This document shows positions 12,731-40,259 of a stretch of 41,256 bases of DNA, one piece after another. Position numbers and translations under genes: made by a program. The DNA comes from a bacterium (GTDB lineage: Bacteria; Bacillota; Clostridia; Christensenellales; Aristaeellaceae), in contig CAVJHY010000001.1 in assembly GCA_963649405.1 (NCBI GenBank), positions 1 through 41,256 on the forward strand, written 5' to 3'. Under the pieces are notes generated by a model. That model saw only the letters and a program-made list of their open reading frames with translations. It did not search any database and was not told the DNA's origin. The stretch's first letter is position 1. Each line of letters opens with the position of its first letter.

Positions 12731-12762
12731 ATAAAAAGGCAGCCCTTTTTGTCGGAGCTGCC
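12731..12762 (-). terminator. Rho-independent terminator ending the sugar island
   Basis: The minus-strand RNA reads GGCAGC(U)CC-GACAAAAA-GGGCUGCC followed by UUUUUAUU. It lies 47 nt downstream of the IolB-like stop. Confidence 0.7.
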
Positions 12763-12808: not shown

Positions 12809-13624
12809 TCAGTTTTTCTTCAACAGATTTTCCACCGCGCTGACCCACTCATGGTCGGGGTCATTGGAGCGGAAGAAGCCCTGATGCTCGCCCGCCATCA
12901 GCCACAGGAAATAGGTGTTGTAGCCGGGTGCGCCCACGGTGGTGTGATAGCCACGCGGGAATTCGACCAGCTCGTCCTGCTTCACGCGATACGCCTCGTC
13001 GATTTCGCCGTCGCTGGTGTACAGGCACTGCACGCCGAAGCCCTGCTGCGGGTCAAACAGGAAGTAGTAAATTTCCTCAAGGATTCCCTCGGAGGGCATA
13101 TTATCCACATCGTGCTTATGCGGCGGGAAACCGGCCCAGTTGCCGGGGGTGATGTACGCCTCGCCGATGGTCAGCTTCTTGGCATTCGTGCTGCCGTCCA
13201 CGATGAAGCTGGTGTCGCGTTCCCACGGCTTTGCGCCCAGACGCACCACGCGAACATCCGCCTGATGGATGGCTTGCGGCTCGGTGTCCACGGTGATGGG
13301 CGTTCCGCACACGGCGATTTTCACATTCCACGGGCTGTCAATTTTCACTGAGCAGTTGCGCGGCGCATAGAAGCATTCAGCCTTGGGGCTTTCAAACACA
13401 TTGCGGCGAACGCCCAAGGTGCCGTAGTCCTTGCCGTTGGCGGTGAAATTGGCCTTGCCGTTCAGAAGGACAAATGCGACCTCGCGGTCTTTCGTTTCAA
13501 AGGTGTAACTTTCGCCGTCCCCCAGCTCGATGATGCCGAATTCCAAGTCCTTCAGGCTGCATTTGCCGATTTCGCACAGCGGGGTATAGCCCTTTTTCGG
13601 GGTGTAAGTCTTTTTGAAATTCAT
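12809..13624 (-). CDS. iolB: 5-deoxy-glucuronate isomerase family protein (IolB-like cupin)
   Basis: GNWAGFPPHKHDVDNMPSEGILEEIYYFLFDPQQGFGVQCLYT...NDPDHEWV closely parallels B. subtilis IolB as I remember it (GNWSSYPPHKHDQDNLPEESFLEETYYHELDPGQGF...NDPAHEWI). Confidence 0.8.
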   Translation of the reverse strand: MNFKKTYTPKKGYTPLCEIGKCSLKDLEFGIIELGDGESYTFETKDREVAFVLLNGKANFTANGKDYGTLGVRRNVFESPKAECFYAPRNCSVKIDSPWNVKIAVCGTPITVDTEPQAIHQADVRVVRLGAKPWERDTSFIVDGSTNAKKLTIGEAYITPGNWAGFPPHKHDVDNMPSEGILEEIYYFLFDPQQGFGVQCLYTSDGEIDEAYRVKQDELVEFPRGYHTTVGAPGYNTYFLWLMAGEHQGFFRSNDPDHEWVSAVENLLKKN

Positions 13625-13627
13625 AAG

Positions 13628-14557
13628 TCATTTCTTCCTTTCCTTGATGTACTGTATCATCATGTCGATGGTTTCCTGCCAATCGGCAATGATTCCATAA
13701 TCCGAACAGGCGAAGATGGGCGCATTGCGCTCTTTGTTGACCGATACCACGGTTTTGGCGCTGCTCATGCCCACCGTGTGCTGGACAAAGCCGCTGATGC
13801 CAAAGCCGATGTACAGCTCCGGCCGGATGGTCACGCCCGTCTGCCCCACCTGATGGGCATAGGAGATATAGCCCGCGTCCACGGCGCTGCGGGTTGCGCC
13901 GACCGCGCCGCCCAGCAAATCCGCCAGTTCAAACAGCTTTTCAAAGCCCTTCTTGCTGCCGACACCCTTGCCGCCCGCGATGACAACCTTTGCATTTTGA
14001 AGTGACACGCCGCTTTCGACCGGCTCAAAGGCAAGCTGCTTCATGCGCTCCTGAAGAAACGGGAGGTCGACGGTCTTGCTTGCGCCGTTTCTGCCGCGGA
14101 CACGCTCCGGCAAGGGGAACACGCCGGGACGGACAGAGGCCATCTGCGGTCTTTTTATTTTGCAGAGGATGTCCGCCGTCAGGTTGTTGCCAAAGGCGGG
14201 GCGGGTCTGCAACAGCAAACCGTTTTGAATGCTCAATTCCGTGCAGTCCGCTGTCAAACCCGTATCGAGCCGTGCAGCGACCCACGCGGACAGGAAGCGC
14301 CCGCGCACCGTGGCGGGAAACAGCACAATATCTGCCTGAAGTATGGTAAGCGCCTCAGCAATGCGGTTGCCCTGTGCGCAATCGTCCGCGCAAAGTGCAA
14401 GCAGCTGCACCTCGTCCGCGCCACTTTCCAAGAGCAGAGCGCCGTTTTCATGCTCCGATAAGGCGATGATGAAGGCTTCCGGCGCGATTGTCCGTGCCTT
14501 GCCAATCAGCTCCAATGCGGGATTCGGCGTTGCTTCACAAAATACGACAATTTTCAC
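13628..14557 (-). CDS. etfA: Electron transfer flavoprotein alpha subunit (EtfA)
   Basis: C-terminal FAD-binding signature VGATRSAVDAGYISYAHQVGQTGVTIRPELYIGFGISGFVQH. I place the start at GTG 14557 (VKIVVF), a GTGA overlap with the etfB stop preceded by GGAAAGGGGG. The ORF-track 5' extension lies inside etfB. Confidence 0.9.
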   Translation of the reverse strand: MKIVVFCEATPNPALELIGKARTIAPEAFIIALSEHENGALLLESGADEVQLLALCADDCAQGNRIAEALTILQADIVLFPATVRGRFLSAWVAARLDTGLTADCTELSIQNGLLLQTRPAFGNNLTADILCKIKRPQMASVRPGVFPLPERVRGRNGASKTVDLPFLQERMKQLAFEPVESGVSLQNAKVVIAGGKGVGSKKGFEKLFELADLLGGAVGATRSAVDAGYISYAHQVGQTGVTIRPELYIGFGISGFVQHTVGMSSAKTVVSVNKERNAPIFACSDYGIIADWQETIDMMIQYIKERKK

Positions 14558-15327
14558 GGCAGCAGCCCCCTTTCCGTCAAGGCGGAAAGCACCTCGGCTG
14601 TGCTGATTTTTTTGCATGGCCGCACACACACGGGACGGCTGTCCACATGGATGACGCGAGTCGGTGAGGCTTTCAAACCGCACTGTGCGGCGGTGAGACC
14701 GATGTCAACGGGTGAAAACAATTGAATGTCTGCCTTTGCTGCTTTCTTTAAGCCGAGCAGTGTCGGCAGACGGAGGCGATAGCTCCATTCGCAGAAGGTG
14801 ACGACCGCAGGAAGCGACGTTTGCCAAGTGATTTTTCCTGTCTCCGTCAGTTGGACGGCGGTGAGACCGTTTTTTGCTTTATCCAAGGTTGTTGCATTGG
14901 CGATGCAGGGAACATCCAGCATAGAGGCCAGCATGGGGCCTACCTGCCCTGTTTCGCCGTCCACGGCGCGGCGGCCGCAGAGAATGACATCAAACCCGCC
15001 CAAGGCTTGGACGGAGGCCTTCAGGCATTTCGCCGTGACCAAGGTGTCCGCACCCGCAAAGGCAGGGTCTGTCAGTAAAACAGCCTTATCCGCACCGCGG
15101 GAAAGCGCTTCCCTGAGAAGGCTTTCGGCGCGTTTGGGTCCCATGGAAAGAACGGTGACTGTACCACCCCAAACATCCCGAAGCTGCAAGCCCTTTTCCA
15201 AGGCGCTCTCATCGGACGGATTCATCACCTGCGCGACAAAATCCCGCTGTAGGGTAAAATCGCTGGACAGCTTCACCTCGGTGGTATCCGGCACCTGCTT
15301 TAAGCATACCAGTATGTTCATGCGCAT
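14554..15327 (-). CDS. etfB: Electron transfer flavoprotein beta subunit (EtfB)
   Basis: MNILVCLKQVPDT N-terminus, CGRRAVDGETGQVGP, and GLKASPTRV. An alternative start is ATG 15321 (MNILV). Confidence 0.9.
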   Translation of the reverse strand: MRMNILVCLKQVPDTTEVKLSSDFTLQRDFVAQVMNPSDESALEKGLQLRDVWGGTVTVLSMGPKRAESLLREALSRGADKAVLLTDPAFAGADTLVTAKCLKASVQALGGFDVILCGRRAVDGETGQVGPMLASMLDVPCIANATTLDKAKNGLTAVQLTETGKITWQTSLPAVVTFCEWSYRLRLPTLLGLKKAAKADIQLFSPVDIGLTAAQCGLKASPTRVIHVDSRPVCVRPCKKISTAEVLSALTERGLLP

Positions 15328-15329
15328 TC

Positions 15330-16796
15330 CTACATTCTGTGATAGATGGGGGCAAGTGCCTTCTGAATGGCCTGATAGATGTCAAAATGCTCGTTATAGA
15401 AGGTCACGCCCTCCTTGTCAGGCAGGGTTTCGCCCGTCACGCGGACACAGCGTTTGACCGCATCGGCATGGCTTGCAAACACGCCCGTGGCAACACCGGC
15501 GAGCATGGCACTGCCGAGGCTGCTGTCCACATTTTCGACTGTTTTAAGCGGAATGTTCAACATATCCGCCAAAATCTGCCGCCACAAATCGCTCTTTGCG
15601 CCGCCTCCGATAGCGACAGCCTCCGTAGGTGCAATCTTCAGCTCCTTGAGGGTGGCAAAGCAGTCCTTCATGGAATAGGCAACGCCCTCCAGCACGGCGC
15701 GGTTAAAGTGCGCCTTCGTATGAGCGCCGACAGCGCCCACAAAGCTGGCGCGGAGCTTGTCATCCAGATACGGAGTAATTTCTCCCTGCAGATAGGGATG
15801 GAAATACAGGCCGTCGCAGCCGCGGGCAACGGAAGCCGCCGCCGCGCTCATTTCGCCGAAGCTGCCGCCGAAGGTGTCCCGATACCAACGGTTGCTGGCA
15901 GCGCAGCTCTTGGTGGCCGTGCCGGGATACCAAAGCTCGTCAATGACATGACGATAAGTGACAAGGCGCGGATCAACCACCGCATGGTCGGTAATCGGGC
16001 AGATGCGTCCCGCCGTGGCGAGCTTCACCGTGGCTTGACCGACAGCAATCGCACCGGCGGCATAGACCTCCATCACGGTGTCCGTCGCGCCGACAATGAC
16101 CACCGTGCCATCCGTCAGTCCCGTGTCCTCCTGCGCCTGTTTGGTCAGCTTGGAGAGCTTGGTCATCGGGTCAACGATGGGCGGCATGATGTCCTTATTC
16201 AAACCCGCCATGGCGCACAGTTTGTCCGACCACTCGTTCTTGCGGGCATCAAGCAGCAAAAAGCCCATTGCTTCAATGCTGTCCGTCACATAGTCGCCCG
16301 TCAGACGGAAACGCACATAGTCCTTGACAGCCATAACCTTGCGCGTTTTTTGAAGCGTTTCCGGCTCGTGACGCTTGAGCCAAATAAGCTGCGGCAGCGT
16401 CCACAGGCTGGAAACGCCGTTGTAGCACTCTTCCATCAGCTCATTGCCCAAATTGGCCTTCAGCGCGGCAGCTTCCTCGCTAGCGCGGCTGTCCGTCCAA
16501 TAGATGGCGCGGCGCACGGGCTTATCATCCTCGCCAAGCAAAACGGCGGTGTGCGTGGCAGCATCCAAAGCCAAGGCTGCGATGTCGCTTGCACTAACGC
16601 CCGATGTATGCAAAATTTCCCGCACATTGGAAACCAGCGCCTGATAGCTGTCCTCCGCGTCCTGCTCTGCCCAGCCGCTGTGCGGATAATAGGTCGGGTA
16701 TTCCTTTCCGGCCGTTGCGTAGACCTTGCCGTCCTCGCCCAAAAGCGTCGCCTTGGAGGAAGAGCCTCCAAAGTCCACGCCCAGCAAATATTTCAT
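15330..16796 (-). CDS. FGGY-family carbohydrate kinase (xylulokinase-like)
   Basis: MKYLLGVDFGGSSSKATLL...GWAEQDAEDSY matches the FGGY N-terminal signatures. I place the start at ATG 16796 (SD GAGGAAAGGG upstream). The ORF-track start at 16856 lies inside a hairpin. Confidence 0.85.
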   Translation of the reverse strand: MKYLLGVDFGGSSSKATLLGEDGKVYATAGKEYPTYYPHSGWAEQDAEDSYQALVSNVREILHTSGVSASDIAALALDAATHTAVLLGEDDKPVRRAIYWTDSRASEEAAALKANLGNELMEECYNGVSSLWTLPQLIWLKRHEPETLQKTRKVMAVKDYVRFRLTGDYVTDSIEAMGFLLLDARKNEWSDKLCAMAGLNKDIMPPIVDPMTKLSKLTKQAQEDTGLTDGTVVIVGATDTVMEVYAAGAIAVGQATVKLATAGRICPITDHAVVDPRLVTYRHVIDELWYPGTATKSCAASNRWYRDTFGGSFGEMSAAAASVARGCDGLYFHPYLQGEITPYLDDKLRASFVGAVGAHTKAHFNRAVLEGVAYSMKDCFATLKELKIAPTEAVAIGGGAKSDLWRQILADMLNIPLKTVENVDSSLGSAMLAGVATGVFASHADAVKRCVRVTGETLPDKEGVTFYNEHFDIYQAIQKALAPIYHRM

Positions 16797-16842
16797 TCTT
16801 TTTTGCCCTTTCCTCTTTTTTAGCAAAACCTTTGGGGAATAT

Positions 16843-17043
16843 ATGAAGGGGGTCACTACCCCTTCATGTCAATTCCGCAGTACCGCCTTTGCCGGTACGA
16901 GAAGCGGTTGGAATACCGCTTCCTATATCAATTTCTGACCGTAAAATGAGATGGCTCTGCCATTCATTTTACAAGAAATTGATGTCCAAATGAAAATCTG
17001 CTTTAGCTGACTTTCATTGATAGTGTGTCAAAAAATTTTGACA
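16843..17043 (-). promoter_or_regulatory. Multi-hairpin untranslated spacer between the Fe-S gene and the FGGY kinase gene
   Basis: Hairpins read directly: 16843-16867 (9 bp), 16880-16898 (6 bp), 16901-16922 (8 bp), 16941-16972 (14 bp with one bulge), and 16989-17018 (7 bp). There is also the palindrome TGTCAAAA-AA-TTTTGACA at 17026-17043. Confidence 0.6.
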
Positions 17044-17056
17044 TACTAATGGTAAA

Positions 17057-17088
17057 CGCGACGCGGGAACAAAACGCCCCGCGCCGCG
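17057..17088 (-). terminator. GC-rich hairpin just after the Fe-S gene; candidate internal terminator or attenuator
   Basis: The minus RNA reads CGCGGCGCGGG-loop-CCCGCGUCGCG followed by UUUACC. That is 11 bp including one G-U that would be an A-C mismatch on the plus strand. The U-tract is weak. Confidence 0.5.
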
Positions 17089-17100
17089 CTATCTTATCCT

Positions 17101-18183
17101 TTAGATGCGCTCCGCCAGCATGACGAACAAATCTTTATATTCGTAGCCTTCAGGAACGGTGGCGCTCAGTGCCTCGGTGCTTTGCGGGCAGGCGGCGACC
17201 ATGATTTTCGCATCCGTGCGCTTGCAATGCTCCCAGCGGCCTTCGGCGACCTTCGCACGAAGCTCCGGCAGATACTGACCGACCACGGCGCTGCCGCAGC
17301 ACTTCGCCAAGCGGCGATTCTGCCACATTTCGTGAATTTCGCAGCCCATCGCAGTCAGAATATCGCGGGCAGGCTGATGCTCGTCCAAGTCACGCGCCAG
17401 ACGGCTGCCGTCATGATAGGTGACGACCATCGGCTTCTTCTGCGGGCTGAGCTTGCCCTGCTTAATCAACTCATCGATAAACGCGGTCGCGGTGACGACT
17501 TCGGGCAGGTCAATGCCCCAGTCCTTATATTCATGGCGCATGAGTGCAGCATCATAGCTGTCCAGCACGATAACCTTCTTTGCGCCCGTTGCACGGATGG
17601 CTTCGCCAGCCTTGGCAGCCTGAGCGCGGACATCCTCCACAAAGCCCATCAAGTCGCCCAGAGCGCTGCCGGAAGCCGGCTCATTTTTGAGCGCAGCAAA
17701 CGGCACTTCGGCGGTCTTCAAAATGGTGAACAGGGCATTGGCCACGCAGGGCGTGGAATAGCGAGCCGTTGCGCCCAACCAAACCAGCGTATCGTCGCTT
17801 TCTGGGATACCGGCAAAATCCACCTTAGTTTCGGTTGCGCCGTAAATGTTGCCCGTCTCAACAACCTTGTCAATGACCTTCTGCACATAAGGGGGGACAA
17901 TGCCCTGCACATTGGCCTGCGTGCGGCCTTCGCGGATAAAAATCAGCGGGTCAAAGCCGGTCACGCAGTCGTTGGTGCAAGCGCCGCAGAGCATACATTC
18001 ATACATCGTCTTGGCGACATCCTTATCAAAGGGCATACCGCGCTCAATCATGCTGACCTGAAGACCCTTGGCACGGGGAGTATTGGTTTCCTTGCCGGTC
18101 ACAAGCTGCACAGGGCACAGGTGACGGCACATCCAGCAAAAGCGGCAGGCCTCCGCATTCTTTTTCGCTTTTTCGCTAAACAT
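17101..18183 (-). CDS. (Fe-S)-binding protein, GlpC/GlcF/HdrD-like (two 4Fe-4S motifs plus CCG domains)
   Basis: CRFCWMCRHLCP and CMLCGACTNDC cluster motifs, and a C-terminal KCCGS (CCG) motif. SD AGGAG lies in the 15-nt gap after the FAD gene. Confidence 0.85.
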   Translation of the reverse strand: MFSEKAKKNAEACRFCWMCRHLCPVQLVTGKETNTPRAKGLQVSMIERGMPFDKDVAKTMYECMLCGACTNDCVTGFDPLIFIREGRTQANVQGIVPPYVQKVIDKVVETGNIYGATETKVDFAGIPESDDTLVWLGATARYSTPCVANALFTILKTAEVPFAALKNEPASGSALGDLMGFVEDVRAQAAKAGEAIRATGAKKVIVLDSYDAALMRHEYKDWGIDLPEVVTATAFIDELIKQGKLSPQKKPMVVTYHDGSRLARDLDEHQPARDILTAMGCEIHEMWQNRRLAKCCGSAVVGQYLPELRAKVAEGRWEHCKRTDAKIMVAACPQSTEALSATVPEGYEYKDLFVMLAERI

Positions 18184-18198
18184 TTGTCTCTATCTCCT

Positions 18199-19629
18199 TT
18201 ACAGACCCAGCTTGTAGGGATTCATGATGCCATTGGGATCCAAGCTCTTTTTAAGACCCTGCATCACCTGCATGGCGGGACCGTACTGCTCCTTCATCAA
18301 GCGGGACAGCTTGAGGCCGATGCCGTGATGGTCGTTAATAACGCCGCCGTTTTCCATTGCTGCACGCACGCCCGCATTCCAAATCTTGTTGTGCAGACGC
18401 ATGGCCTCTTCGGGGTCTTGCGGAACATAGGCGGGGTCAACGATAAAGCGGGTGTAATTCATGCAGCCCCACTCATACCAGTGGCTGGAGTGAGAGATGT
18501 ACTTAACATAGGGGAACTGCTCGTTGATGACCTTCTTCATCGCCCAATAAATCTTTTCGATGTTGGCATAGGTCGCCACGGTGTCCATCGTGCCGAACAT
18601 CTGCGGGATGTCCATGATGTGACCGGGATAGAAGAAGGTGATGCGGTTCTCGTACCATTTTTCGCCGTACTCGCTGCCCAGATTCTGAGCGCCGTACTTG
18701 TCGGCAATCTCCTGTACGATTTCCATTTCGATATCGACAATCTTCTTCATGCCCTCGCAGGTCACGTTCATGAAGCAGCCCTTTTTCTCAAAGCCCAGAA
18801 TCTTCTTGATGATGGACACGGTTTCGGCCTCATCAAAGAAGCGGAGAATGGAGGGCTTCACCTTCTGCATGATGTCGCGGCCAGCCATGTAGCCGGAATG
18901 CATATCCGGGAACAGGAAGGCGATGTGCTGGCGGCTTTCCGGCTGCTCAAACAGCTTAAAGGTCGCTTTGGTGATAACGCCCAAAGTTCCCTCACTGCCG
19001 ATGAAGATTTCATTGAGGTCAGGACCGGCTGCGTGCTTCGGCACGGGCAGGGTGTTGATGATGTCGCCGTTCGGCAGAACGACTTCCATGCTGACGCACA
19101 TATCATCAATCTTGCCGTACTTGGTGGACATAATGCCGATGCCGCGATGACCTAGCGCGCCACCGATGGTGCCGCAGGTCAGGCAGGATGGGATGTGCTG
19201 GCAGGAATAGCCGCGCTCGTTGGCGTACCATTCGAGCTGCTGGAAAATCATGCCCGCTTCAGCAGTGATGGTGCGGCTCACCTCATCGATTTCAATCAGG
19301 TGATTCATGCGCTTCATATCCATCATGATGCCGCCGGCCATCGGCAGAGCGCCGCCCTGACTGCCGCTGCCGCCGCCCCAGATATTCACGGGGATTTTAT
19401 AGTAGTTTGCAATCTTGAGAATCTTGCTGACTTCGACGCTGCTGCCCGGACGCACGATGTAGTCCGGCATCGGAGGGGTCTGTCCGCGATCCTCCCACAT
19501 ACGGCTGATCCAGAAATAGTCCACGCCGTAGGTCGCACGGTCGCTGGGCGCGGTGGATACATTTTCCGTCCCCACAACGTCCTCAAGCTCCGTCAGAATC
19601 ATATTATTCATAAAAGCCTTGCGTTCCAT
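18199..19629 (-). CDS. FAD-binding oxidoreductase (FAD_binding_4 / VAO-GlcD superfamily)
   Basis: PDYIVRPGSSVEVSKILKIANYYKIPVNIWGGGSGSQGG is the typical FAD-PCMH domain, followed by a long FAD-oxidase C-domain. I place the start at ATG 19629 (MERKAF), 10 nt after GAGGAG. The ORF-track TTG at 19647 overlaps the upstream stop. Confidence 0.85.
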   Translation of the reverse strand: MERKAFMNNMILTELEDVVGTENVSTAPSDRATYGVDYFWISRMWEDRGQTPPMPDYIVRPGSSVEVSKILKIANYYKIPVNIWGGGSGSQGGALPMAGGIMMDMKRMNHLIEIDEVSRTITAEAGMIFQQLEWYANERGYSCQHIPSCLTCGTIGGALGHRGIGIMSTKYGKIDDMCVSMEVVLPNGDIINTLPVPKHAAGPDLNEIFIGSEGTLGVITKATFKLFEQPESRQHIAFLFPDMHSGYMAGRDIMQKVKPSILRFFDEAETVSIIKKILGFEKKGCFMNVTCEGMKKIVDIEMEIVQEIADKYGAQNLGSEYGEKWYENRITFFYPGHIMDIPQMFGTMDTVATYANIEKIYWAMKKVINEQFPYVKYISHSSHWYEWGCMNYTRFIVDPAYVPQDPEEAMRLHNKIWNAGVRAAMENGGVINDHHGIGLKLSRLMKEQYGPAMQVMQGLKKSLDPNGIMNPYKLGL

Positions 19630-19643
19630 GAATGCTTCACTCC

Positions 19644-20315
19644 TCAATAATGAATCTCGTAGTTGATGCCGTGCAGACCGACATACGCGCCCTTTTGCAC
19701 AACGGGCGCATTGTCCTCATGCGCGATGAGCCACTTGTCCTTTGCCCACAGAAGCCGGCCATCGCCGCCCTTGGGCTGACCGCCGTCCAGCGGCGTGTTC
19801 GTGCCTTTGGGCAGAACAACAATGCAGCGGAAGCCGTCATCGGACACTTGGCAGGGGCAAAAATGCAGGGTCGTTGCATAGACCTCAATGACGCTGCCCT
19901 TAGGAACATAGAAGGCCGTAACCTTCTTGGTGTCCAAATCAAAGCCTTCCATATCCTGCTGATGCGCAAGCAGCAGCACCATGTCGCTCACGGCGATATT
20001 ATGCTCGCTGGCACGGTGGTATTCCAAGCAGTTGAGCTTGCTGGAATGTCCCCAGCAGACACCAATTTGGCAGCTTCCCTCACCGCGCAAGATGGTTTGA
20101 ACAGCATGGAAATCCTCGGTGAGCGCCTCTAATTCCGGCATGGCGGGGACATATGCACTGCCCTCCTCCGGCATTTTGGCGGCCTGTTCGCAGACACTCA
20201 TCAGCTTTTCGGCAGGAAAATCAATCACTCTGCCAAAGGTGCGAAATTCGGGGTCGTTCACGGAATAAATCGGGACATCAGGATTTAAGGCACGCAGCTT
20301 TTCCAACATATTCAT
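19644..20315 (-). CDS. DUF4867-like protein (predicted cupin / ureidoglycolate-lyase-like fold), function unknown
   Basis: About 223 aa with no catalytic motif I can name. The family name is from memory of similar proteins in sugar clusters. I place the start at ATG 20315, 10 nt after AAGGAGG. Confidence 0.55.
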   Translation of the reverse strand: MNMLEKLRALNPDVPIYSVNDPEFRTFGRVIDFPAEKLMSVCEQAAKMPEEGSAYVPAMPELEALTEDFHAVQTILRGEGSCQIGVCWGHSSKLNCLEYHRASEHNIAVSDMVLLLAHQQDMEGFDLDTKKVTAFYVPKGSVIEVYATTLHFCPCQVSDDGFRCIVVLPKGTNTPLDGGQPKGGDGRLLWAKDKWLIAHEDNAPVVQKGAYVGLHGINYEIHY

Positions 20316-20330
20316 CGATTTCAAGCCTCC

Positions 20331-21179
20331 TTACAGGATGGTAATGAAGTGATGGCGCTGGACAGATTGTCCCACCTCTAAGCGGATGCAGCCCTTCTTA
20401 TGCTCAATCTGCATATCACTGTCCAAGGTGTCCGGCGCATTGAGCCACGGCTCAATGCAGATGTATTCCGCGCCCGGCTTCATCCAGAACATCAGCACAT
20501 CGTGTTCGGGGAAATCCACCCGCACCTTGCGGTCATGCTTTTTGCTCACCAAGGTCACGCCGCGGCTCTTTAGGTCGGTAAATACCAGCGCATCCACGGC
20601 AAAATATTTTTCTTTCAAGGGGAAAACGCGGGTGTTCTCCGCCATCACCTGCCCCACGGGGTCAATTAAATTGCCGTGAAGCTCATGGTTAAGCAGGGTT
20701 TCTTCCTCATCAAAGACGATTTCGTAATCTTCAAGCCTGCCGGGGGTTGCATAGCCCTCGTGAGCGCCCATGCCGAAATAGAAGGTGCGGCTGTCCTTAT
20801 TGTCCACCTGCCATGTCACGATGACGCGGTTGTCCTCCAGCCGATAGTTGACATGGAGCGCATAGTCAAACGGAAAGCCCGGCGCTTTTTCCTGCATGAG
20901 ATAAGTTGCACTTACATCGTCCGTCTTTTCAAGCTGCCACTCAATCTGGCGCACATAGCCATGCTTTGGCATTTCATAACGCTGACCGTTCAAATAATAG
21001 CAGTCATCCCTGAGTCCGCCCGCAATGGGGAACAGAATCGGGGCGCGACCCTTCCAAAATTGTGGGTCGCCCTGCCACAGCCGCTCAACGCCGTTTGCAT
21101 CCTTGATGGACTGCATTTCTGCGCCAAGAGAGGAAATCGTCACTGTCAGCTTGTCGTTATGCAGTGTCGTCAGGCTCAC
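20331..21179 (-). CDS. Aldose 1-epimerase (galactose mutarotase-like) family protein
   Basis: LWQGDPQFWKGRAPILFPIAGGL...MPKHGY and a C-terminal IEPW are typical of LacX/YihR-type mutarotases. I place the start at GTG 21179, a GTGA overlap with the kinase stop preceded by GGAAAGGGG. ATG 21215 is an alternative. Confidence 0.8.
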   Translation of the reverse strand: MSLTTLHNDKLTVTISSLGAEMQSIKDANGVERLWQGDPQFWKGRAPILFPIAGGLRDDCYYLNGQRYEMPKHGYVRQIEWQLEKTDDVSATYLMQEKAPGFPFDYALHVNYRLEDNRVIVTWQVDNKDSRTFYFGMGAHEGYATPGRLEDYEIVFDEEETLLNHELHGNLIDPVGQVMAENTRVFPLKEKYFAVDALVFTDLKSRGVTLVSKKHDRKVRVDFPEHDVLMFWMKPGAEYICIEPWLNAPDTLDSDMQIEHKKGCIRLEVGQSVQRHHFITIL

Positions 21180-22105
21180 AGCGAAACGCCCCTTTCCTTT
21201 AGGAATGCGCGGCATTCTTCGTCTGTCGCCATCGCATAGCGAGCGCCCAAGCGGGTGCATTTGATGGCCGCCGCAGCGCTGGCGTACTTGCAGGCATCAT
21301 CGTTATTCAAACCCTTGATTTTCGCAGCCGCAAACGCGCCATGGAAGGTATCGCCGCAGCCGTTGGTGTCCTTTGCGTCCACCTTATAGCTGGCATAGCG
21401 GCGCAGACCCTTTTCGTCCAGCAAAATGCCGCCGCGCACGCCCTGCGTCAGCACCAGCAGCTCGGGATGATAGGTGTCATACAGCTTCTTTGCCGCATCT
21501 TCGGCGTTCTTTTCGCCGGTCATCTTGAGCGCAAATTCCTCGGAGGGAATCAGATAATCCACATAAGGCATGAGGTTTTCCACGCCCGAATAAGTGCCGC
21601 CTGCGTCATGGCTGACCTTCACGCCATGCTCGCGGCAGTATTTCGCGGCGGCGATGGCGGCATTCAGCATATGCCCGTCCAAATGCAGCACCTTTGCATG
21701 GCTCAGCACATCAAAGTCAATGTCCGCTTCCGTCGGCTGCGGAACAGTGCCTCTGTTCCAAATGCAGGTGCGGCTGGTGCTCGCTTGGCTGAGCAGTACC
21801 ACGGAATGGAAGCTGACGGCATCCGCCACGCGGCGCACACAGGTCGTGTCAATATCCCAATGAGCGAAGTCGTCCATCATGAAACGGCCGAAGGGGTCAT
21901 CACCGATGGTTCCCATATAGGCAGCAGAAACGCCCAGCTTGCGGGCAGCAACCAACGCCGTGGCGCAGGGGCCGCCCCCCTGCACCTTGGTTTCAATGCC
22001 TTCCCGCTTGGTGTCCTCGGTCGGAAAACGGTCAACCACCATTAAGGTGTCATACACGGTCGAGCCGATGCCCACCATTTCAGGCCATGTCGTCCGATTA
22101 AGCAT
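21176..22105 (-). CDS. PfkB-family sugar kinase (YihV-like subgroup)
   Basis: The N-terminal GGGPCATALVAARKLG and C-terminal DTNGCGDTFHGAF...AIKCTRLGAR resemble E. coli YihV as I remember it. I place the start at ATG 22105 (SD GGAGGA), overlapping the aldolase 3' end by 8 nt. Confidence 0.85.
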   Translation of the reverse strand: MLNRTTWPEMVGIGSTVYDTLMVVDRFPTEDTKREGIETKVQGGGPCATALVAARKLGVSAAYMGTIGDDPFGRFMMDDFAHWDIDTTCVRRVADAVSFHSVVLLSQASTSRTCIWNRGTVPQPTEADIDFDVLSHAKVLHLDGHMLNAAIAAAKYCREHGVKVSHDAGGTYSGVENLMPYVDYLIPSEEFALKMTGEKNAEDAAKKLYDTYHPELLVLTQGVRGGILLDEKGLRRYASYKVDAKDTNGCGDTFHGAFAAAKIKGLNNDDACKYASAAAAIKCTRLGARYAMATDEECRAFLKERGVSL

Positions 22106-22928
22106 TGGTGTCCTCCGCGCCCAGCAGCGCAATCTTTTCAAGCGCAAAGCGCTTCACCGCCTGCGTCGGCTCTTTCATGAACAAGTCAACAGCGATGGTC
22201 TTGGGGTCAACGCTGTGGAAGGCGTTCAGGAAGGAGCAGCAGACATCCGTGCCAAAGTTAATCTTGCTGATACCAGCCTTGATAGCAGCCTGAATCTGCT
22301 CATCAGGAACGCCACTGCCGCCGTGCAGCACAAGGTGTGCCTTGGTCGCCGCATGAATTTCTGCAATGCGGTCAATCGCCAAAACGGGCGCTTGCTTATA
22401 GTGACCGTGTGCCGTGCCGACCATGATGGCCAGCGCATCCACGCCAGTTTCGTCCACAAAGCGGACAGCCTCATCCACCTTGGTATATTCAGTGCTGACA
22501 CCCTCAGCAGCCACGCCGATGTGACCCAGCTCGCCTTCGACATCCACGCCGACTTCGTGGGCAAAATGCACCACATTTTTCAAAACCTTGATATTTTCCT
22601 CAAAGGGCAGGGTGCTGGCATCGCGCATGACGCTGGTGCAGCCCCAACGGAGCGCGCGGCAGACTGCCTCATCACTTGCGCCGTGATCAAGATGGAAGGC
22701 GAGCTTCACCTTGGACTTTTCAGCAGCCTTCAGGATGGAGGGAACGAGGAACTCGGCCTCATAGTTGGTGAACAGGCGGCTGTACATCTGCAGAATCACG
22801 CTGGCGTTCGCTTCCTCAGCGGCAAAAATGATGCCCAGCGCGGTCTCAGCGTTGTACACATTAAAAGCAGGGATGGCGCACTTGCGCTCCTCGGCAACCT
22901 TCAGCATATCTTTCATTCCGGTCAGCAT
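22098..22928 (-). CDS. Class II ketose-bisphosphate aldolase (FbaA/GatY/KbaY/IolJ family)
   Basis: AIPAFNVYN, HLDHGAS, GELGHIG, GTAHGHYK and LVLHGGSG motifs. Length 276 aa. Confidence 0.9.
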   Translation of the reverse strand: MLTGMKDMLKVAEERKCAIPAFNVYNAETALGIIFAAEEANASVILQMYSRLFTNYEAEFLVPSILKAAEKSKVKLAFHLDHGASDEAVCRALRWGCTSVMRDASTLPFEENIKVLKNVVHFAHEVGVDVEGELGHIGVAAEGVSTEYTKVDEAVRFVDETGVDALAIMVGTAHGHYKQAPVLAIDRIAEIHAATKAHLVLHGGSGVPDEQIQAAIKAGISKINFGTDVCCSFLNAFHSVDPKTIAVDLFMKEPTQAVKRFALEKIALLGAEDTNA

Positions 22929-22999
22929 GGCAAAAATCTTCCTTTCATTTATTAATATAGGGATGATTGAAGGGACAATATAGCCACTACAAATTAACT

Positions 23000-24400
23000 T
23001 TATTCGTTCACTGTATCGAGCTTCAGCTCAGGCACGAACTTGATGAACTCGCGCAGCTCTTCGGTGACATCGCCCTCGATTTCGGCCATATGGTGGATGT
23101 ACGGGCCTTCAATCAGCTTGCGCTCCCACGCAGAGAGGTTCTTAAACTGCGCCCAAAGGTAAGTGCCGAAGGTGTACGGACCATCGGTCGTCTTGCAGGT
23201 GCCGGCCAAGAGGCTGTAATTGCCGTTGTCTTGGTCGAAGCGAGACACGGTGTATTCGCCGTCCTTGACTTGGAACCACTGGCGCATATTCACATTCTTG
23301 CAGGGGCTGCCCTCTTTCTTGAGGCTGTAAGCGAACGGCCCGCAGTGCCACAGAAGCTCGGCATTCTTGTTTTCGGGATGGCGCACGGTGAATTCGCCGA
23401 AGAACGGAATCTTCTTGCCCATCGTCGCGCAGGACAGCAGTGCCATCGAGATTGCGCCGTGCAGATCGCTCTCGCAGGAGATGATATAGCCCATATCAGC
23501 CAAAATGCTGTATGCAGTGCAGGGCATCGCGCCGACACCAAGCTGCATGGCCGTCCAACACTCGGCAGACACAGCCTGTACATTATAGGCTTCAAACAGC
23601 CACTTATACAGCAGCACGAAGGCATAGACCTTCTTGAGCAGCGGCGGGGTCAAATCGTCCATTTCATAACGGGACAGAAGCAGCTTTGCGCCCTCTTCCA
23701 GCTCCGCATCGTTCTCCGCCAGAATCTTGTTGTATTTGTCGATGATGACGGCCATGTTGACAGGAATGATCTGCAGACCGAATTTTTCCATCAGCTCGCC
23801 CTCATTAAAGATGACGGAGCAGAAGGGCTTGGGACGCATACCGATCTGCGCAATGCGCATTCCACGGAAATTCTTGACCATGCACGCCACATGGGTGAAT
23901 TTCTCAAAGCCAGTCTTGAAGATGTCGCTCTCCACGGGGCTGGTTTCGATGTAGCTGAACGGCACATGGAGGCGCTGAAGCTGACGGCTTACACCGAACA
24001 GACCGCACTGGCTGTCAGTATAGCGGGTGCCATCGGGCAGGAAGCTGTCGTCAATGGGTGCCCAAATGCAAACGGGCTTGCCCACACCACGAGCCACTGT
24101 TCCGGCGATTTCCTCATTGCCGAAGTTGCAGTTGATAATCAGCACTGCATCGACCTTTTCCGCGTTAAAGCGCTCAATGACCTTTTCCGCGTCTGCATCG
24201 CAGTACATGACATCAACGGGGTTGATGCCCTTTAAGTCCACAAAGGTGACATTTTCGGAAGCGAAATGCTCCTCAATGTACTGAACAATCTGATGACCGC
24301 GCTCTTCCGCCTTTTCCCAGTTGAAAATGCCGGGACGCGGGGTAACATCACGACGCATGGGAGCCAGACCAATCTTGACCTGATAATTCAGCATAGCCAT
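23000..24400 (-). CDS. L-fucose/L-arabinose isomerase family protein (short, ~465-aa form)
   Basis: The N-terminal KIGLAPMRRD...INCNFGNEE...DSQCGLFG pattern fits the short FucI-like family. I place the start at ATG 24400 (MAMLNYQ), 7 nt after AAGAAGG. The ORF-track start is GTG 24418. Confidence 0.7.
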   Translation of the reverse strand: MAMLNYQVKIGLAPMRRDVTPRPGIFNWEKAEERGHQIVQYIEEHFASENVTFVDLKGINPVDVMYCDADAEKVIERFNAEKVDAVLIINCNFGNEEIAGTVARGVGKPVCIWAPIDDSFLPDGTRYTDSQCGLFGVSRQLQRLHVPFSYIETSPVESDIFKTGFEKFTHVACMVKNFRGMRIAQIGMRPKPFCSVIFNEGELMEKFGLQIIPVNMAVIIDKYNKILAENDAELEEGAKLLLSRYEMDDLTPPLLKKVYAFVLLYKWLFEAYNVQAVSAECWTAMQLGVGAMPCTAYSILADMGYIISCESDLHGAISMALLSCATMGKKIPFFGEFTVRHPENKNAELLWHCGPFAYSLKKEGSPCKNVNMRQWFQVKDGEYTVSRFDQDNGNYSLLAGTCKTTDGPYTFGTYLWAQFKNLSAWERKLIEGPYIHHMAEIEGDVTEELREFIKFVPELKLDTVNE

Positions 24401-24439
24401 AGCACAGCCTTCTTTCACAAAGTTTGGGGGATTATCTGT

Positions 24440-24468
24440 ATTATAAAAAACTCTGAATCGCTAATCAA
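24440..24468 (-). promoter_or_regulatory. Sigma-A-type promoter of the sugar catabolic island
   Basis: On the minus strand: TTGATT, 17 nt, TATAAT, about 40 nt upstream of the isomerase start. The inverted repeat GAATCG-N13-CGATTC (24455-24479) overlaps the -35. Confidence 0.65.
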
Positions 24469-24683: not shown

Positions 24684-24724
24684 AAAAAATGAAATCGAGA
24701 ATTGTCCGAAAGCGAGGGACAGGC

Positions 24725-26245
24725 ATGGCACAGGTCAAGGTGGCCATTGTGGAGGATAACCCCATTACCGTTCGTTCATTATGTCAAACCATTGACTGGG
24801 CAAGTCTTGGCTGCGTGGTGGTGGGGACGGCTTCGGACGGCGAAAGCGGGCGAGAACTGCTTTTGCAGAAGCGTCCTGATATTCTGCTCACCGACATTCG
24901 TATGCCCAAGCTGGACGGCTTGGAAATGCTGGAGGCCGTGCGTCCCACGCTGCCCGATATGAAGGCCATCATCATCACCGGCTATGATCAGTTTCAATAT
25001 GCCAGCCGTGCCATCAAGCTCGCCGTGTTTGACTATATCCTGAAGCCCATTCAGAATGAAGAGGTTATCAAAGCGGTCAATCGGGCGATTGATTTGATGC
25101 AGCGTCAAATGGCCGCCGATGTCGCCATGACGCAGGTGGACAAGCTACGCATGAAGGCGCAGATTTTGTCCCTGCTCACCAACGATTCCCGCGTAGGTCA
25201 AAATGTCAACCAGTCCTTGGAAGATACAGGGCTTTGGAGTCCTGCCTATTATCTGATGATTATTCAGCCGGAGGAGCCGGGCGCGATTCCGCTGTCTACC
25301 CTGAATGGCATGGATGATTTGCTGGCGGGCTGCCAGATGCGAGCGCTGTCCGTTGTGCTGTATGATTCCTTGGTCGTGTATGTCATGCGCGAAAACACGG
25401 GCGATGGCTGGCGCGATGAGGTGGAGCGCGTCTGCCAGCGCATTGAGCGGACGCTGCCCGCCAAGGTGCGTATCGGCATCAGCTCTTTGGCGACTTCTCA
25501 TCACCAGATTCGGCAGACCTACCATCAGGCGCGGCAGGCACTTTGGGAAAGCGCCATGAGCCATATCAGCGGCACATGCGTCTATTATCATGCGGAAAAT
25601 ACCGAGAATGACGGGCTGATGACCGAGGTACGCCGCAAGATTGAAGAGCTGATTGAAAAGGCCGAGCTGACGGATGAAAGCGCTCACGAGGCGGCGCAGG
25701 TGATTACCGAAATCAGCGGGCAGCAGTACAGCCAGCTCCGCTCTCTTGTGTCGCTGTATTCGCTCATGCTGTTCCGCAAGTTTCCCTGCACCATGACCGC
25801 CGATATTGACAGAGCCATGAGCGCTCCGTGGTTTGTGACGGGACGGGAGGAAGTCGAAAAGTGCCTGAAAAGTTTGCATAAGGCGCTCAGCGAGGGCAAT
25901 GACGCATCGGAAAACAAATGCTCCCTGCTCACCCGCAATGTGCTGGAATACATCCGTCTGCATGGCGCGGAAAAGTTAGAGCTGAATGACATCGCCGATA
26001 TGTACCATGTCAGCGTGAACTATTTATCTGCGCTCATCCGCAAGGAAACTGGCATCACCTTCCGCGAGCATTTGCAGAACGCGAAAATGGAAATTGCGCA
26101 TACCATGCTGGCTGACCCGCGTATTTTGGTTGAGGAGGTCGGCAGCGCCATCGGGTACAGCAATTATATTTCCTTCTATAACGCCTTCAAACGGGCGGAG
26201 CATATGACACCGACAGAATACCGAAACAAATTAGCAAGAAGCTAA
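24725..26245 (+). CDS. Two-component response regulator with AraC-type HTH output (YesN-like)
   Basis: The receiver domain (VAIVEDNP...LLTDIRMPKLDG...K) and a C-terminal AraC HTH (YHVSVNYLSALIRKETGITFREHL). I place the start at ATG 24725 (MAQVKV), 5 nt after GAGGGA. Confidence 0.9.
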   Translation: MAQVKVAIVEDNPITVRSLCQTIDWASLGCVVVGTASDGESGRELLLQKRPDILLTDIRMPKLDGLEMLEAVRPTLPDMKAIIITGYDQFQYASRAIKLAVFDYILKPIQNEEVIKAVNRAIDLMQRQMAADVAMTQVDKLRMKAQILSLLTNDSRVGQNVNQSLEDTGLWSPAYYLMIIQPEEPGAIPLSTLNGMDDLLAGCQMRALSVVLYDSLVVYVMRENTGDGWRDEVERVCQRIERTLPAKVRIGISSLATSHHQIRQTYHQARQALWESAMSHISGTCVYYHAENTENDGLMTEVRRKIEELIEKAELTDESAHEAAQVITEISGQQYSQLRSLVSLYSLMLFRKFPCTMTADIDRAMSAPWFVTGREEVEKCLKSLHKALSEGNDASENKCSLLTRNVLEYIRLHGAEKLELNDIADMYHVSVNYLSALIRKETGITFREHLQNAKMEIAHTMLADPRILVEEVGSAIGYSNYISFYNAFKRAEHMTPTEYRNKLARS

Positions 26246-27986: not shown

Positions 27987-28025
27987 TTTACGCGAATGGT
28001 AGACCCTTTGTCTGAATAAACCAAG

Positions 28026-28062
28026 GACGGCGGGCTGTCCGTTGGATAGCCCGCCGTCTTTA
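28026..28062 (+). terminator. Intra-operon hairpin after the binding-protein gene (partial terminator / mRNA stabiliser)
   Basis: GACGGCGGGCT-11 nt loop-AGCCCGCCGTC followed by TTTAT. Confidence 0.6.
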
Positions 28063-28102
28063 TACCCAAAGCGAAACCTATTTAATATGGAGTGTGGCCA
28101 AG

Positions 28103-29898: not shown

Positions 29899-29997
29899 CA
29901 ACTTATCAAAACATTGGATGGCCGCGCATTTGCGCGGTCATTCTTGCATTATGATGAAATATCGGCTAAAATAGATATGGCAGGAGGCGATATACAG

Positions 29998-38166: not shown

Positions 38167-38244
38167 TAGCCAGCCTCCCTTCTTTCCGTTTTTTGACAAC
38201 GGACGGCGAAGGCCAAAGAAGCCTCCGCCGCCTCAATGAAAAGC

Positions 38245-38273
38245 ATTATACACGATTTATAAGCCGCTGCCAA
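38245..38273 (-). promoter_or_regulatory. Internal sigma-A-type promoter for the ROK regulator gene
   Basis: On the minus strand: TTGGCA (38273-38268), 17 nt, TATAAT (38250-38245). The -35 lies in the last codons of the upstream NagB-like gene. Confidence 0.6.
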
Positions 38274-39054: not shown

Positions 39055-39059
39055 GTTCG

Positions 39060-40244: not shown

Positions 40245-40259
40245 GGTGCAGCCTCGGTC

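Follow-up and report, generated by a model that had tools for sequence, protein, structure and literature searches.

What is a cluster of eleven catabolic genes for, when its members can be read as pieces of several familiar sugar pathways at once? The question is raised by a 41,256-nucleotide stretch of contig CAVJHY010000001.1 (GenBank assembly GCA_963649405.1; an Aristaeellaceae bacterium of the Christensenellales), hereafter the window, in which eleven minus-strand open reading frames (ORFs) occupy positions 12809-24418 if the first of them, an isomerase gene, is taken at its longest in the ORF listing. An initial annotation, made from the sequence alone, had described this island as a mixture of fucose-, tagatose/sulfoquinovose- and inositol-type modules with a substrate that could not be deduced, and had seen in it either a new route or two partial pathways sharing one aldolase. 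All eleven genes are indeed present, ten of the family assignments are upheld by Pfam and NCBIfam, and the island matches no characterised pathway while being conserved as a unit in many uncultured gut Clostridia. What we propose, at roughly even odds (a probability of about 0.5), is that the island, together with a divergent two-component system and a CUT1-type ATP-binding cassette (ABC) importer, forms one conserved gut-Clostridia catabolic locus for a hexose-type sugar, possibly C6-modified or conjugated, which is built of a core and a side module and is neither the sulfoquinovose (SQ) nor the Bacillus-type inositol nor the tagatose-bisphosphate pathway. The view of the island as uncharacterised, with a substrate that the gene list does not betray, holds good, no characterised operon that could be found being orthologous to it; a mix of independent partial pathways seems unlikely, and a coherent modular operon takes its place.

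The case for a single unit comes from other genomes. When one genome per species was scanned, relatives of the isomerase were found to be encoded by 491 species-level genomes, the best 80 loci of which were analysed, and neighbours were counted in those 60 loci that extend 9 kb or more to one side of the isomerase gene (all counts being lower bounds, as the loci end at 10 kb). These neighbours include at least 54 aldolase, 44 FAD flavoprotein, 43 iron–sulfur (Fe-S) subunit, 43 PfkB kinase, 34 FGGY kinase, 33 DUF4867, 28 IolB and 19 mutarotase genes, as well as at least 26 each for EtfB and EtfA, the subunits of an electron transfer flavoprotein (ETF). The gene set is shared by dozens of genomes at species level, which belong to the Clostridia and to a few other phyla, and it comes in at least five gene orders, met with in Christensenellales-like metagenome-assembled genomes (MAGs), Lachnospiraceae, Oscillospiraceae, Sphaerochaetaceae and Anaerolineaceae: the window's own order is that of the Christensenellales-like MAGs (with 96-97% identity to the window in two loci, L002 and L003), the Lachnospiraceae, including the cultured Hungatella hathewayi WAL-18680, have FGGY-GFO-(ThuA)-transporter-isomerase-aldolase-PfkB-DUF4867-FAD-FeS-EtfBA-IolB, and the Oscillospiraceae have isomerase-FAD-FeS-aldolase-PfkB-IolB-(mutarotase)-(DUF4867)-FGGY-Etf, the last being fused. 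Because the same genes are brought together repeatedly in shuffled orders, the island is one selected functional unit and not a chance mosaic, and the accidental adjacency implied by two partial pathways sharing one aldolase becomes unlikely, given that the orders are spread across several families and phyla.

Within this unit, modules can be discerned: an invariant core of isomerase and aldolase (usually with PfkB), the FAD flavoprotein with its Fe-S subunit, and the FGGY kinase with IolB. Limiplasma-like loci, which we call type B, have exactly the first seven genes of the island and, behind them, a lactate operon (LctD, LarA and an EtfBA that includes a ferredoxin domain), whereas type D loci retain the isomerase and the aldolase only, accompanied by a different PfkB kinase, an aldehyde dehydrogenase, a divergent glycerate-kinase-like protein, a divergent enolase paralogue, an Ldh_2 dehydrogenase, an aldo-keto reductase, a short-chain dehydrogenase/reductase, a 2-keto-3-deoxy-6-phosphogluconate (KDPG) aldolase, a glycerol-dehydrogenase-like protein and KduD-like genes. 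Partners such as the aldehyde dehydrogenase and the glycerate-kinase-, enolase- and glycerol-dehydrogenase-like proteins imply that a free C3 aldehyde is among the products of the core. Examples of type D are L075 (1123-12232), L076 (2091-12233) and L065 (13244-20667); their MOFRL glycerate-kinase-like protein scores 88 bits against a cut-off of 550, their enolase 279 against 300 and their Ldh_2 protein, for which L-sulfolactate dehydrogenase is the best match, 244 against 500, and a 3-substituted glycerate or lactate may be the substrate of the enolase and glycerate-kinase paralogues. A GFO/IDH/MocA oxidoreductase, absent from the window, stands in 15 of the related loci, usually with a ThuA-like protein (e.g., L013 7900-9800; L030 4627-6507; L035 1882-2943), and its best NCBIfam match is levoglucosan dehydrogenase at 158 bits versus 650; Limiplasma loci add an AP_endonuc_2 TIM-barrel protein to this gene, and the set could be a front end of the 3-keto-glycoside type.

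The first gene of the island (23000-24394, minus strand) encodes a protein of 464 aa; its ORF can be extended to 24418, and the orthologues begin at MLNYQ. It had been called a FucI-family isomerase, a name that finds good support at the level of the fold and a weak signal at that of the sequence: there was no Pfam match at E<=0.001, a PDB sequence search came back empty, PF02952 (Fucose_iso_C) was reached below its cut-off only (E=0.004; 17.2 bits versus a gathering score of 29.3), and homologues about 80% identical carry the NCBI name “hypothetical protein”. The AlphaFold model (pLDDT 94.7), however, was placed by Foldseek at a TM score of 0.84 to L-arabinose isomerase (AraA) and 0.77 to FucI and D-arabinose isomerase. 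PF02952 is matched by 32 of the 37 members of a diverse alignment of the family, the profile of which finds AraA chains at 1e-10, and hhalign (probability 96.7%) pairs E308/E334/H350/H435 of the isomerase with E306/E333/H350/H450 of AraA, E334 being one column off. The latter are the Mn ligands and catalytic residues of AraA, so that their counterparts are kept here, in columns that are invariant or nearly so across the family. The sole NCBIfam match is the sulfoquinovose isomerase SftI (NF048012), whose cut-off of 700 bits is missed by far at 132. Taken together, the profile alignment and the fold model describe the first gene product as an active-looking isomerase of a distinct, as yet unannotated subfamily with the three-domain AraA/FucI fold, which an exhaustive search puts at about 2,500 proteins at E<=1e-5 (1,453 representatives at 50% identity).

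Relatives at 36% identity to this isomerase are also encoded by Listeria monocytogenes (L082 5296-13086), a Lactiplantibacillus plantarum plasmid (L083 4536-11277) and Monoglobus pectinilyticus (L084 9995-16226), where they belong to another kind of cluster, comprising a LacI regulator, the isomerase, a split transketolase and an FGGY kinase. A beta-glucoside phosphotransferase system and a DUF4038 protein accompany it in Listeria and L. plantarum, and a DUF5060 protein does so in Monoglobus; DUF4038 is what we take to be the GH140 apiosidase family, and these clusters resemble, by analogy, a transketolase-type pathway for a branched pentose (apiose-like).

The class II (Zn) aldolase (22098-22928, minus strand; F_bP_aldolase in Pfam, also recognised by NCBIfam) belongs to a YdjI-like clade, YdjI being its closest solved relative (38.6% identity, compared with 35.6% to GatY), and in the PDB search structures of SqiA came second and fourth after it (6.7e-48 and 6.2e-46). 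The motif KINFGTDVC stands where GatY has KINVATELK, and it places a Cys, as in YdjI, at the position of the Arg or Lys that binds the 6-phosphate; this Cys is shared by 55 of the 56 orthologues in which the motif is present. The protein does pass the generic ketose-bisphosphate aldolase subfamily model (232 versus 215.6 bits), and, from its residues and clade, it is probably a ketose-1-phosphate aldolase. The PfkB-family sugar kinase (21176-22105, the ORF extending to 22147, minus strand; Pfam and PDB match) had been said to have termini like those of the Escherichia coli sulfofructose kinase YihV, and YihV does top its PDB matches (2.9e-33; 31% identity). Catalytic D13/D244 and K27 are retained, and in the HMMER alignment K47 and N131 of the kinase lie opposite K27 and N109 of YihV, and its H159 opposite R138; the latter position is occupied by H, N or Y, never R, in 51 of 51 orthologues. 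Sequence comparison would make this protein probably a ketose 1-kinase.

Two further proteins complete the core. The aldose 1-epimerase, or mutarotase (20331-21179, the ORF extending to 21260, minus strand; Pfam), has the Lactobacillus “galactose mutarotase related enzyme” 3dcd as its best PDB match. The DUF4867 cupin metalloprotein (19644-20324, minus strand; Pfam), a recurrent partner of FucI-family isomerases, has SqvB as its sole PDB match and is equally close to a non-sulfo clostridial type (45%). The idea that DUF4867 proteins are the sulfoquinovose isomerase itself was dropped, as a 2025 JBC paper assigns this activity to the FucI-family protein and gives the function of DUF4867 as not known. 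The contexts of DUF4867 genes in a plasmid collection contained no pointer to the substrate.

The remaining genes are those that set the island apart. The FAD flavoprotein (18199-19647, minus strand; FAD_binding_4 and FAD-oxidase_C in Pfam) finds its best full-length PDB match in the Dictyostelium alkyl-dihydroxyacetone-phosphate synthase (ADPS; 2e-46), which ranks before LctD, D-lactate dehydrogenase and glycolate oxidase. Its R269, Y398 and D439-H440-H441 lie opposite R419, Y578 and H615-H617 of the mammalian ADPS, two of the three His being kept, and this R/Y/DHH signature is invariant in 48 of 48 orthologues, whereas LctD-like paralogues within the same loci show the dehydrogenase signature E/Y/GEH. 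A glycolate or D-lactate dehydrogenase was considered for the flavoprotein/Fe-S pair and rejected, Arg and D-H-H replacing the Glu and G-E-H expected of one; the GlcD model TIGR00387 is likewise failed by the flavoprotein (195 versus 568). The likeness to ADPS appears, by analogy, to be confined to the active site, because the obligate Fe-S partner and the ETF argue for net redox chemistry. That partner (17101-18183, minus strand; Pfam and NCBIfam) is a GlpC/GlcF/LdhH-like subunit with two 4Fe-4S motifs and a CCG domain.

Further along the same strand lie a xylulokinase-like FGGY kinase (15330-16796, the ORF extending to 16856; likely start MKYLLGVDFGG), which at 362.6 bits scores just under the 380 cut-off of the XylB model, EtfB (14554-15327) and an EtfA devoid of a ferredoxin domain (13628-14557, the ORF extending to 14683 and overlapping etfB), both assigned by Pfam and NCBIfam, and finally an IolB/KduI-family cupin aldose-ketose isomerase (12809-13624; Pfam, NCBIfam), for which TIGR04378 is passed marginally (214.5 bits versus 205). 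The pairing of FGGY kinase and flavoprotein recurs far from the Clostridia. On a Mesorhizobium plasmid, FGGY (40%), FAD (45%) and Fe-S-like (22%) genes are syntenic and lie beside a LacI regulator and an ABC importer; in Enterococcus gilvus, FGGY and FAD genes are adjacent, beside a glycerol dehydrogenase and a glycerol-3-phosphate-responsive antiterminator; and E. coli K-12 has ygcE (FGGY), ygcU (FAD, R/Y/HHH), ygcQR (ETF), ygcNO and ygcP, all “putative” in the annotation, with identities to the island proteins of 31% for YgcU, 23% for YgcE, 28% for YgcQ and 29% for YgcR. A literature search retrieved no paper giving ygcE/ygcU-type genes a function. The “hypothetical protein” encoded after the Mesorhizobium FAD gene (L087 13461-14585) is a full-length, Cys-poor homologue of the Fe-S subunit (22% over 315 aa), which suggests that in this aerobe the partner subunit is degenerate and without a cluster. 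From such pairings we infer that the kinase and the flavoprotein would act one after the other, in analogy to GlpK/GlpABC or EryA/EryB with ETF in place of quinone, and that the substrate of the flavoprotein is probably a phosphate ester having a dihydroxyacetone phosphate (DHAP)-like head group.

What has been observed concerns gene content, the fold, conserved residues, synteny and modularity; put together, these assignments yield a conditional model. In the core, the mutarotase, the AraA/FucI-fold isomerase and the DUF4867 protein would turn an imported aldose into a ketose (the substrates being deduced from the families), the YihV-like PfkB kinase would place a phosphate on C1, and the YdjI-like class II aldolase would split the ketose-1-phosphate into DHAP and a free C3 aldehyde. 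In the side module, the FGGY kinase might phosphorylate a small polyol or ketol (candidates are the sugar as its alditol, an aglycone of the glycerol type, or the C3 fragment once the IolB-type cupin has isomerised it), and the ADPS-like flavoprotein with its Fe-S subunit would then oxidise the phosphate ester beside the phosphorylated carbon, giving the DHAP-like head group; the electrons would pass to EtfAB and then probably to NAD+ with ferredoxin, in a quinone-less anaerobe. The side module would supply the same aldolase from a sugar in reduced or conjugated form, or else it would process the C3 unit. Candidates for the sugar itself are neutral hexoses and 6-deoxyhexoses, alditol/aldose pairs, glycosyl-glycerols and acid sugars. 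A more daring version, which we hold to be a long shot, has the FGGY kinase, the flavoprotein with its Fe-S and ETF partners, and IolB release the sugar without any glycosidase from a C3-linked conjugate such as galactosyl- or sulfoquinovosyl-glycerol, the remnants of galactolipid and sulfolipid deacylation: the kinase would phosphorylate the glycerol moiety, oxidation by the flavoprotein would give a 1-O-glycosyl-DHAP, the exact analogue of the alkyl-DHAP ligand of ADPS, enolisation or isomerisation would then make the ether carbon a hemiacetal that falls apart into free sugar and triose phosphate, and the freed sugar would pass to the core of mutarotase, isomerase, kinase and aldolase. No glycoside hydrolases recur across the 80 related loci. 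Four other chemistries, i.e., lactaldehyde to acetol to acetol-phosphate, sulfolactaldehyde to sulfoacetol-phosphate followed by an ADPS-type desulfonation, the oxidative cleavage of lactyl ethers, and a route from aldonate through 2-keto-aldonate to pentulose, were considered and not adopted for lack of evidence.

Several observations weigh against the locus being read as such a core plus a kinase-then-oxidase side module. Nothing obvious among the island genes would dispose of the free C3 aldehyde. The flavoprotein and Fe-S genes of about seven type B loci lack an FGGY or IolB gene within 10 kb, and one locus consists of isomerase, DUF4867, FGGY and IolB genes without an aldolase or a flavoprotein, which means that the order of kinase and then flavoprotein is not always backed by adjacency. 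Between the Fe-S and FGGY genes some relatives encode a nickel-dependent lactate racemase (600 bits versus a cut-off of 460), other species have an Ldh_2 dehydrogenase at this junction, and the Fe-S gene of Limiplasma-type loci is directly followed by a lactate operon, complete and lctBCD-larA-like (L013 17727-21395); these insertions and lct genes indicate that a C3 2-hydroxy acid may be involved, and they hint that the flavoprotein substrate could be a 2-hydroxy acid instead of a phosphate ester. Moreover, the equation of the aldolase Cys with Arg259 of the class IIb fructose-1,6-bisphosphate (FBP) aldolases (DTDLR motif), a Lys in GatY, is an assumption of ours that relies on class II aldolase numbering and not on a comparison of structures.

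The signals around the genes are compatible with more than one way of transcribing them. A sigma-70-like promoter, TTGATT-17-TATAAT (24440-24468, minus strand; 10/12 matches), lies about 45 nt 5' of the isomerase start codon, and an intrinsic terminator with an 8-bp stem, a 9-nt loop and a U-tract, UUUUUAUU, lies at 12731-12762 on the same strand; a pattern scanner had overlooked the latter because of its 9-nt loop, and folding with shuffling revealed the hairpin (12762-12731; dG -17.5 kcal/mol, z -4.3, equally stable shuffles 0/200). Both signals named in the initial annotation are therefore there; single-unit transcription, however, is not established, as the spacer that separates the Fe-S gene from the FGGY gene (16857-17100, about 300 nt if measured to the likely FGGY start) contains a 13-bp GC stem at about 17056-17089 (dG -26.5, z -3.4) and, just downstream of it, the perfect 18-bp palindrome TGTCAAAATTTTTTGACA at 17026-17043, which make transcription as 7 + 4 genes possible. 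The palindrome occurs once in the window (chance expectation 0.1), looks like an operator, and is without obvious conservation in the relatives examined; the spacer may be a sub-operon boundary or an operator, and its position coincides exactly with the 7 + 4 boundary of other genomes. In close relatives of the window, a lactate racemase or Ldh_2 gene occupies the position of this spacer (L004 17336-18736; L005 17820-19010).

Divergently from the island, on the plus strand, Pfam recognises a YesN-type response regulator (receiver and AraC helix-turn-helix domains; 24689-26245), a CUT1-type ABC importer having no ATPase gene (26676-29898), made up of a solute-binding protein (26676-27986) and two permeases (28094-29023 and 29020-29898), and a YesM-type sensor histidine kinase (HAMP, His_kinase, HATPase_c; 29914-31812). 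The nearest solved or curated relatives of the solute-binding protein are too remote to point to a ligand, and an Rfam search of the window returned no family, hence no riboswitch or leader. The flanks are housekeeping genes. At 36934-41114, on the minus strand, lie genes for a ROK-family protein, a weakly NagB-like protein (Glucosamine_iso, E=1e-4), a NagA-like amidohydrolase and a protein of 284 aa without a match in Pfam, which probably form an amino-sugar unit unrelated to the island.

How, then, do the pathways that the gene list recalls fare as explanations? The three half-pathways of the initial annotation had each been called incomplete, and none of them is borne out by NCBIfam scores, residues and gene content. 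The enzymes it had reported as missing (IolG/E/D/A, a GH31 sulfoquinovosidase, any glycoside hydrolase, any NAD-dependent dehydrogenase and a FucA/RhaD-type aldolase) are indeed absent from the ORFs scanned with Pfam, a set made up of the island's eleven genes, the five genes for regulators and transporter, and those flanking ORFs that lie from 4447 to 41114. The Bacillus-type inositol route could be rejected, since IolB alone passes, marginally, IolC_N reaches 97.6 against 300, and IolG/E/D/A are not among the scanned ORFs. The sulfo-EMP reading (EMP standing for Embden–Meyerhof–Parnas) has nearly every closest characterised homologue on its side, these being sulfoglycolysis enzymes, and yet it fails its defining tests. 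It would have the mutarotase, an SftI-like isomerase, DUF4867, the YihV-like kinase and the SqiA-like aldolase act on SQ or sulfoquinovosyl glycerol (SQGro) in a hybrid sulfo-EMP pathway, with the leftover genes forming a new route that processes or desulfonates sulfolactaldehyde. To the PDB and NCBIfam matches already given (SftI, YihV, SqiA and SqvB) can be added the L-sulfolactate dehydrogenase likeness of the accessory Ldh_2 in related loci, the published hybrid EMP1/2 clusters with exactly these Pfam families, and the transport of SQGro by CUT1 importers. SqiA recognises the sulfonate mostly via its backbone and hence offers no diagnostic residue for the aldolase; of the sulfonate triad K27-N109-R138 of sulfofructose kinase, the Arg is replaced by His, Asn or Tyr in all 51 orthologues. 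Together with the isomerase, far under the SftI cut-off, and the missing key enzymes, this led us to reject the SQ route: no GH31 sulfoquinovosidase, sulfolactaldehyde reductase or sulfonate/sulfite exporter is encoded in the window or recurs in the 80 loci, the Pfam scan found no PF03446/PF14833, Aldedh or exporter families in the island or its flanks, and the aldehyde dehydrogenase recurs in type D loci only, not in window-type clusters. Sulfoquinovosidases of such pathways are of the GH31 (YihQ/SftG) or the NAD-dependent GH188 (SqgA) type, and glycoside hydrolases of any kind are absent among the scanned window ORFs. DUF4867 is no closer to SqvB than to the non-sulfo type, rumen SQ-enrichment studies describe other pathways, and even the hybrid is, in our estimate, improbable. 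Literature searches on the gene combination and on a quinovose pathway gave nothing relevant.

A tagatose-type route, in which D-galactose and/or galactitol would pass through the isomerase, an FGGY 6-kinase, the PfkB kinase as 1-kinase and the aldolase to yield DHAP and glyceraldehyde 3-phosphate, has the merits that both kinases are employed and no aldehyde needs to be disposed of, and the match of the aldolase to the generic bisphosphate model and of the mutarotase to a galactose-related enzyme agree with it, as does the fact that AraA-type enzymes convert galactose to tagatose. The bisphosphate reading is weakened, however, because the clade of the aldolase is without the Arg/Lys that binds the 6-phosphate and groups with YdjI, a monophosphate aldolase, to which it is closer than to GatY; TIGR01858 is reached at 208.5 versus 443.55, the tagatose kinase model NF049991 at 75 versus 420 and the 1-phosphofructokinase/hexose kinase model at 40 versus 216, many loci have the isomerase, PfkB and aldolase genes and no FGGY gene nearby, and IolB, the flavoprotein and the ETF would be left without a role, all of which makes this route unlikely. 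Rather doubtful, too, is an acid-sugar route patterned on the lower inositol pathway, in which a uronate or deoxy-uronate would be isomerised by IolB and/or the isomerase, phosphorylated by the PfkB kinase and cleaved to DHAP and a C3 acid semialdehyde. YdjI does cleave a uronate-1-phosphate, the nearest relatives of the kinase use ketoses with an anionic C6, IolB scores above its equivalog cut-off, and KduD-like, KDPG-aldolase and glycerate-kinase-like genes stand in related small loci; against this, the IolB score is barely over the threshold, the shortfall of IolC and the absence of IolG/E/D/A count here as well, no enzyme for malonate or tartronate semialdehyde is encoded, and a mutarotase with a CUT1 importer would be unusual for uronates. 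Finally, the island might be two adjacent independent units, a seven-gene sugar operon (isomerase to Fe-S) and a four-gene FGGY/EtfBA/IolB unit for a different substrate, to which the strong hairpin and palindrome in the 300-nt spacer, the type B loci and the lone isomerase-DUF4867-FGGY-IolB locus lend some colour. We give this only a slim chance, since the Oscillospiraceae order has the FGGY, IolB and ETF genes interspersed among the others and the Lachnospiraceae have them upstream of the transporter genes, and the synteny of FGGY and flavoprotein genes in unrelated phyla bridges the proposed boundary, the flavoprotein belonging to the first half and the FGGY kinase to the second.

If the single sugar locus with a core and a side module is retained, its implications reach beyond one contig. 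The locus is widespread in uncultured Clostridia from the guts of ruminants, poultry and humans (Hadza and Nepali cohorts among them), so an abundant dietary or host-derived carbon source may be escaping gut metabolic models, and the isomerase subfamily defined here is “hypothetical” in current annotation. The module of ADPS-like flavoprotein, FGGY kinase and ETF is given a genomic context to which a clear core pathway belongs, and glycosidase-free release, if true, would give the orphan E. coli genes ygcE/ygcU/ygcQR a reaction type. Metagenomic surveys of SQ metabolism call for caution, as all sulfo-EMP Pfam families can be present in a cluster that fails residue-level tests. H. hathewayi WAL-18680, a cultured carrier of the full set, opens the question to experiment.

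Set against known systems, the island shares its logic with sulfo-EMP1 and sulfo-EMP2 (YihR/S/V/T of E. coli; SqvB/SqvD/SqiK/SqiA of Bacillus), in which a mutarotase, an isomerase, a 1-kinase and an aldolase likewise lead to DHAP and a C3 aldehyde through the same families (PF01263, PF16161, a FucI-type isomerase, PF00294 and PF01116), and which supply the closest characterised homologues of most of the core proteins; it differs in having no sulfonate Arg, an isomerase far under the SftI cut-off, and no sulfoquinovosidase, sulfolactaldehyde reductase/dehydrogenase or exporter, and it adds the FGGY kinase, the ADPS-like flavoprotein with its Fe-S subunit, EtfAB and IolB, found in no sulfoglycolysis cluster. 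With IolB/IolC/IolJ of Bacillus subtilis it has in common a cupin isomerase, a PfkB kinase and a class II aldolase yielding DHAP, whereas the IolC model is failed, IolG/E/D/A are absent and many genes are extra. The E. coli ydj cluster (YdjH/YdjI) also combines a PfkB 1-kinase with a class II ketose-monophosphate aldolase having Cys at the position of the 6-phosphate Arg, but YdjH is only 26% identical to the kinase, Zn-dehydrogenases are present, no such isomerase is encoded, and the substrates in vitro are C7-C9 uronates. The xylose operon of Clostridium saccharobutylicum has the same trio of FucI-superfamily isomerase, DUF4867 and xylulokinase-like FGGY kinase, as does C. acetobutylicum in CAC2610-2612 (FucI-family xylose isomerase, DUF4867 and XylB type); its isomerase, however, is about 23% identical (in the C. 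butyricum homologue), and its partners are a transketolase and a fructose-6-phosphate aldolase in place of the PfkB kinase, class II aldolase and flavoprotein. The lactate dehydrogenase/EtfAB complex LctBCD of Acetobacterium woodii and the Dld-II-type D-lactate dehydrogenases (FAD plus Fe-S) likewise pair, in the former case in an anaerobe, a flavoprotein of the vanillyl-alcohol oxidase family with EtfAB or an Fe-S/CCG subunit, and lactate racemase and lctBCD-like genes are often neighbours of island-type loci, although the island signature is R...DHH and not E...EH, its EtfA lacks the ferredoxin domain and its flavoprotein is linked to an FGGY kinase. It is this last link that leads to the E. 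coli ygc cluster, in which ygcP is GlpP-like. Its identities to the island are 23-31%, its ETF-quinone partners are of the FixCX type (ygcNO) instead of a CCG Fe-S subunit, its transport relies on the major facilitator superfamily and not on an ABC importer, and the core of isomerase, aldolase and PfkB kinase is missing; like the island, however, it is a sugar-type locus in which an FGGY kinase is joined by an ADPS-like flavoprotein (R/Y/HHH; 31% identity) and by an EtfAB of its own.

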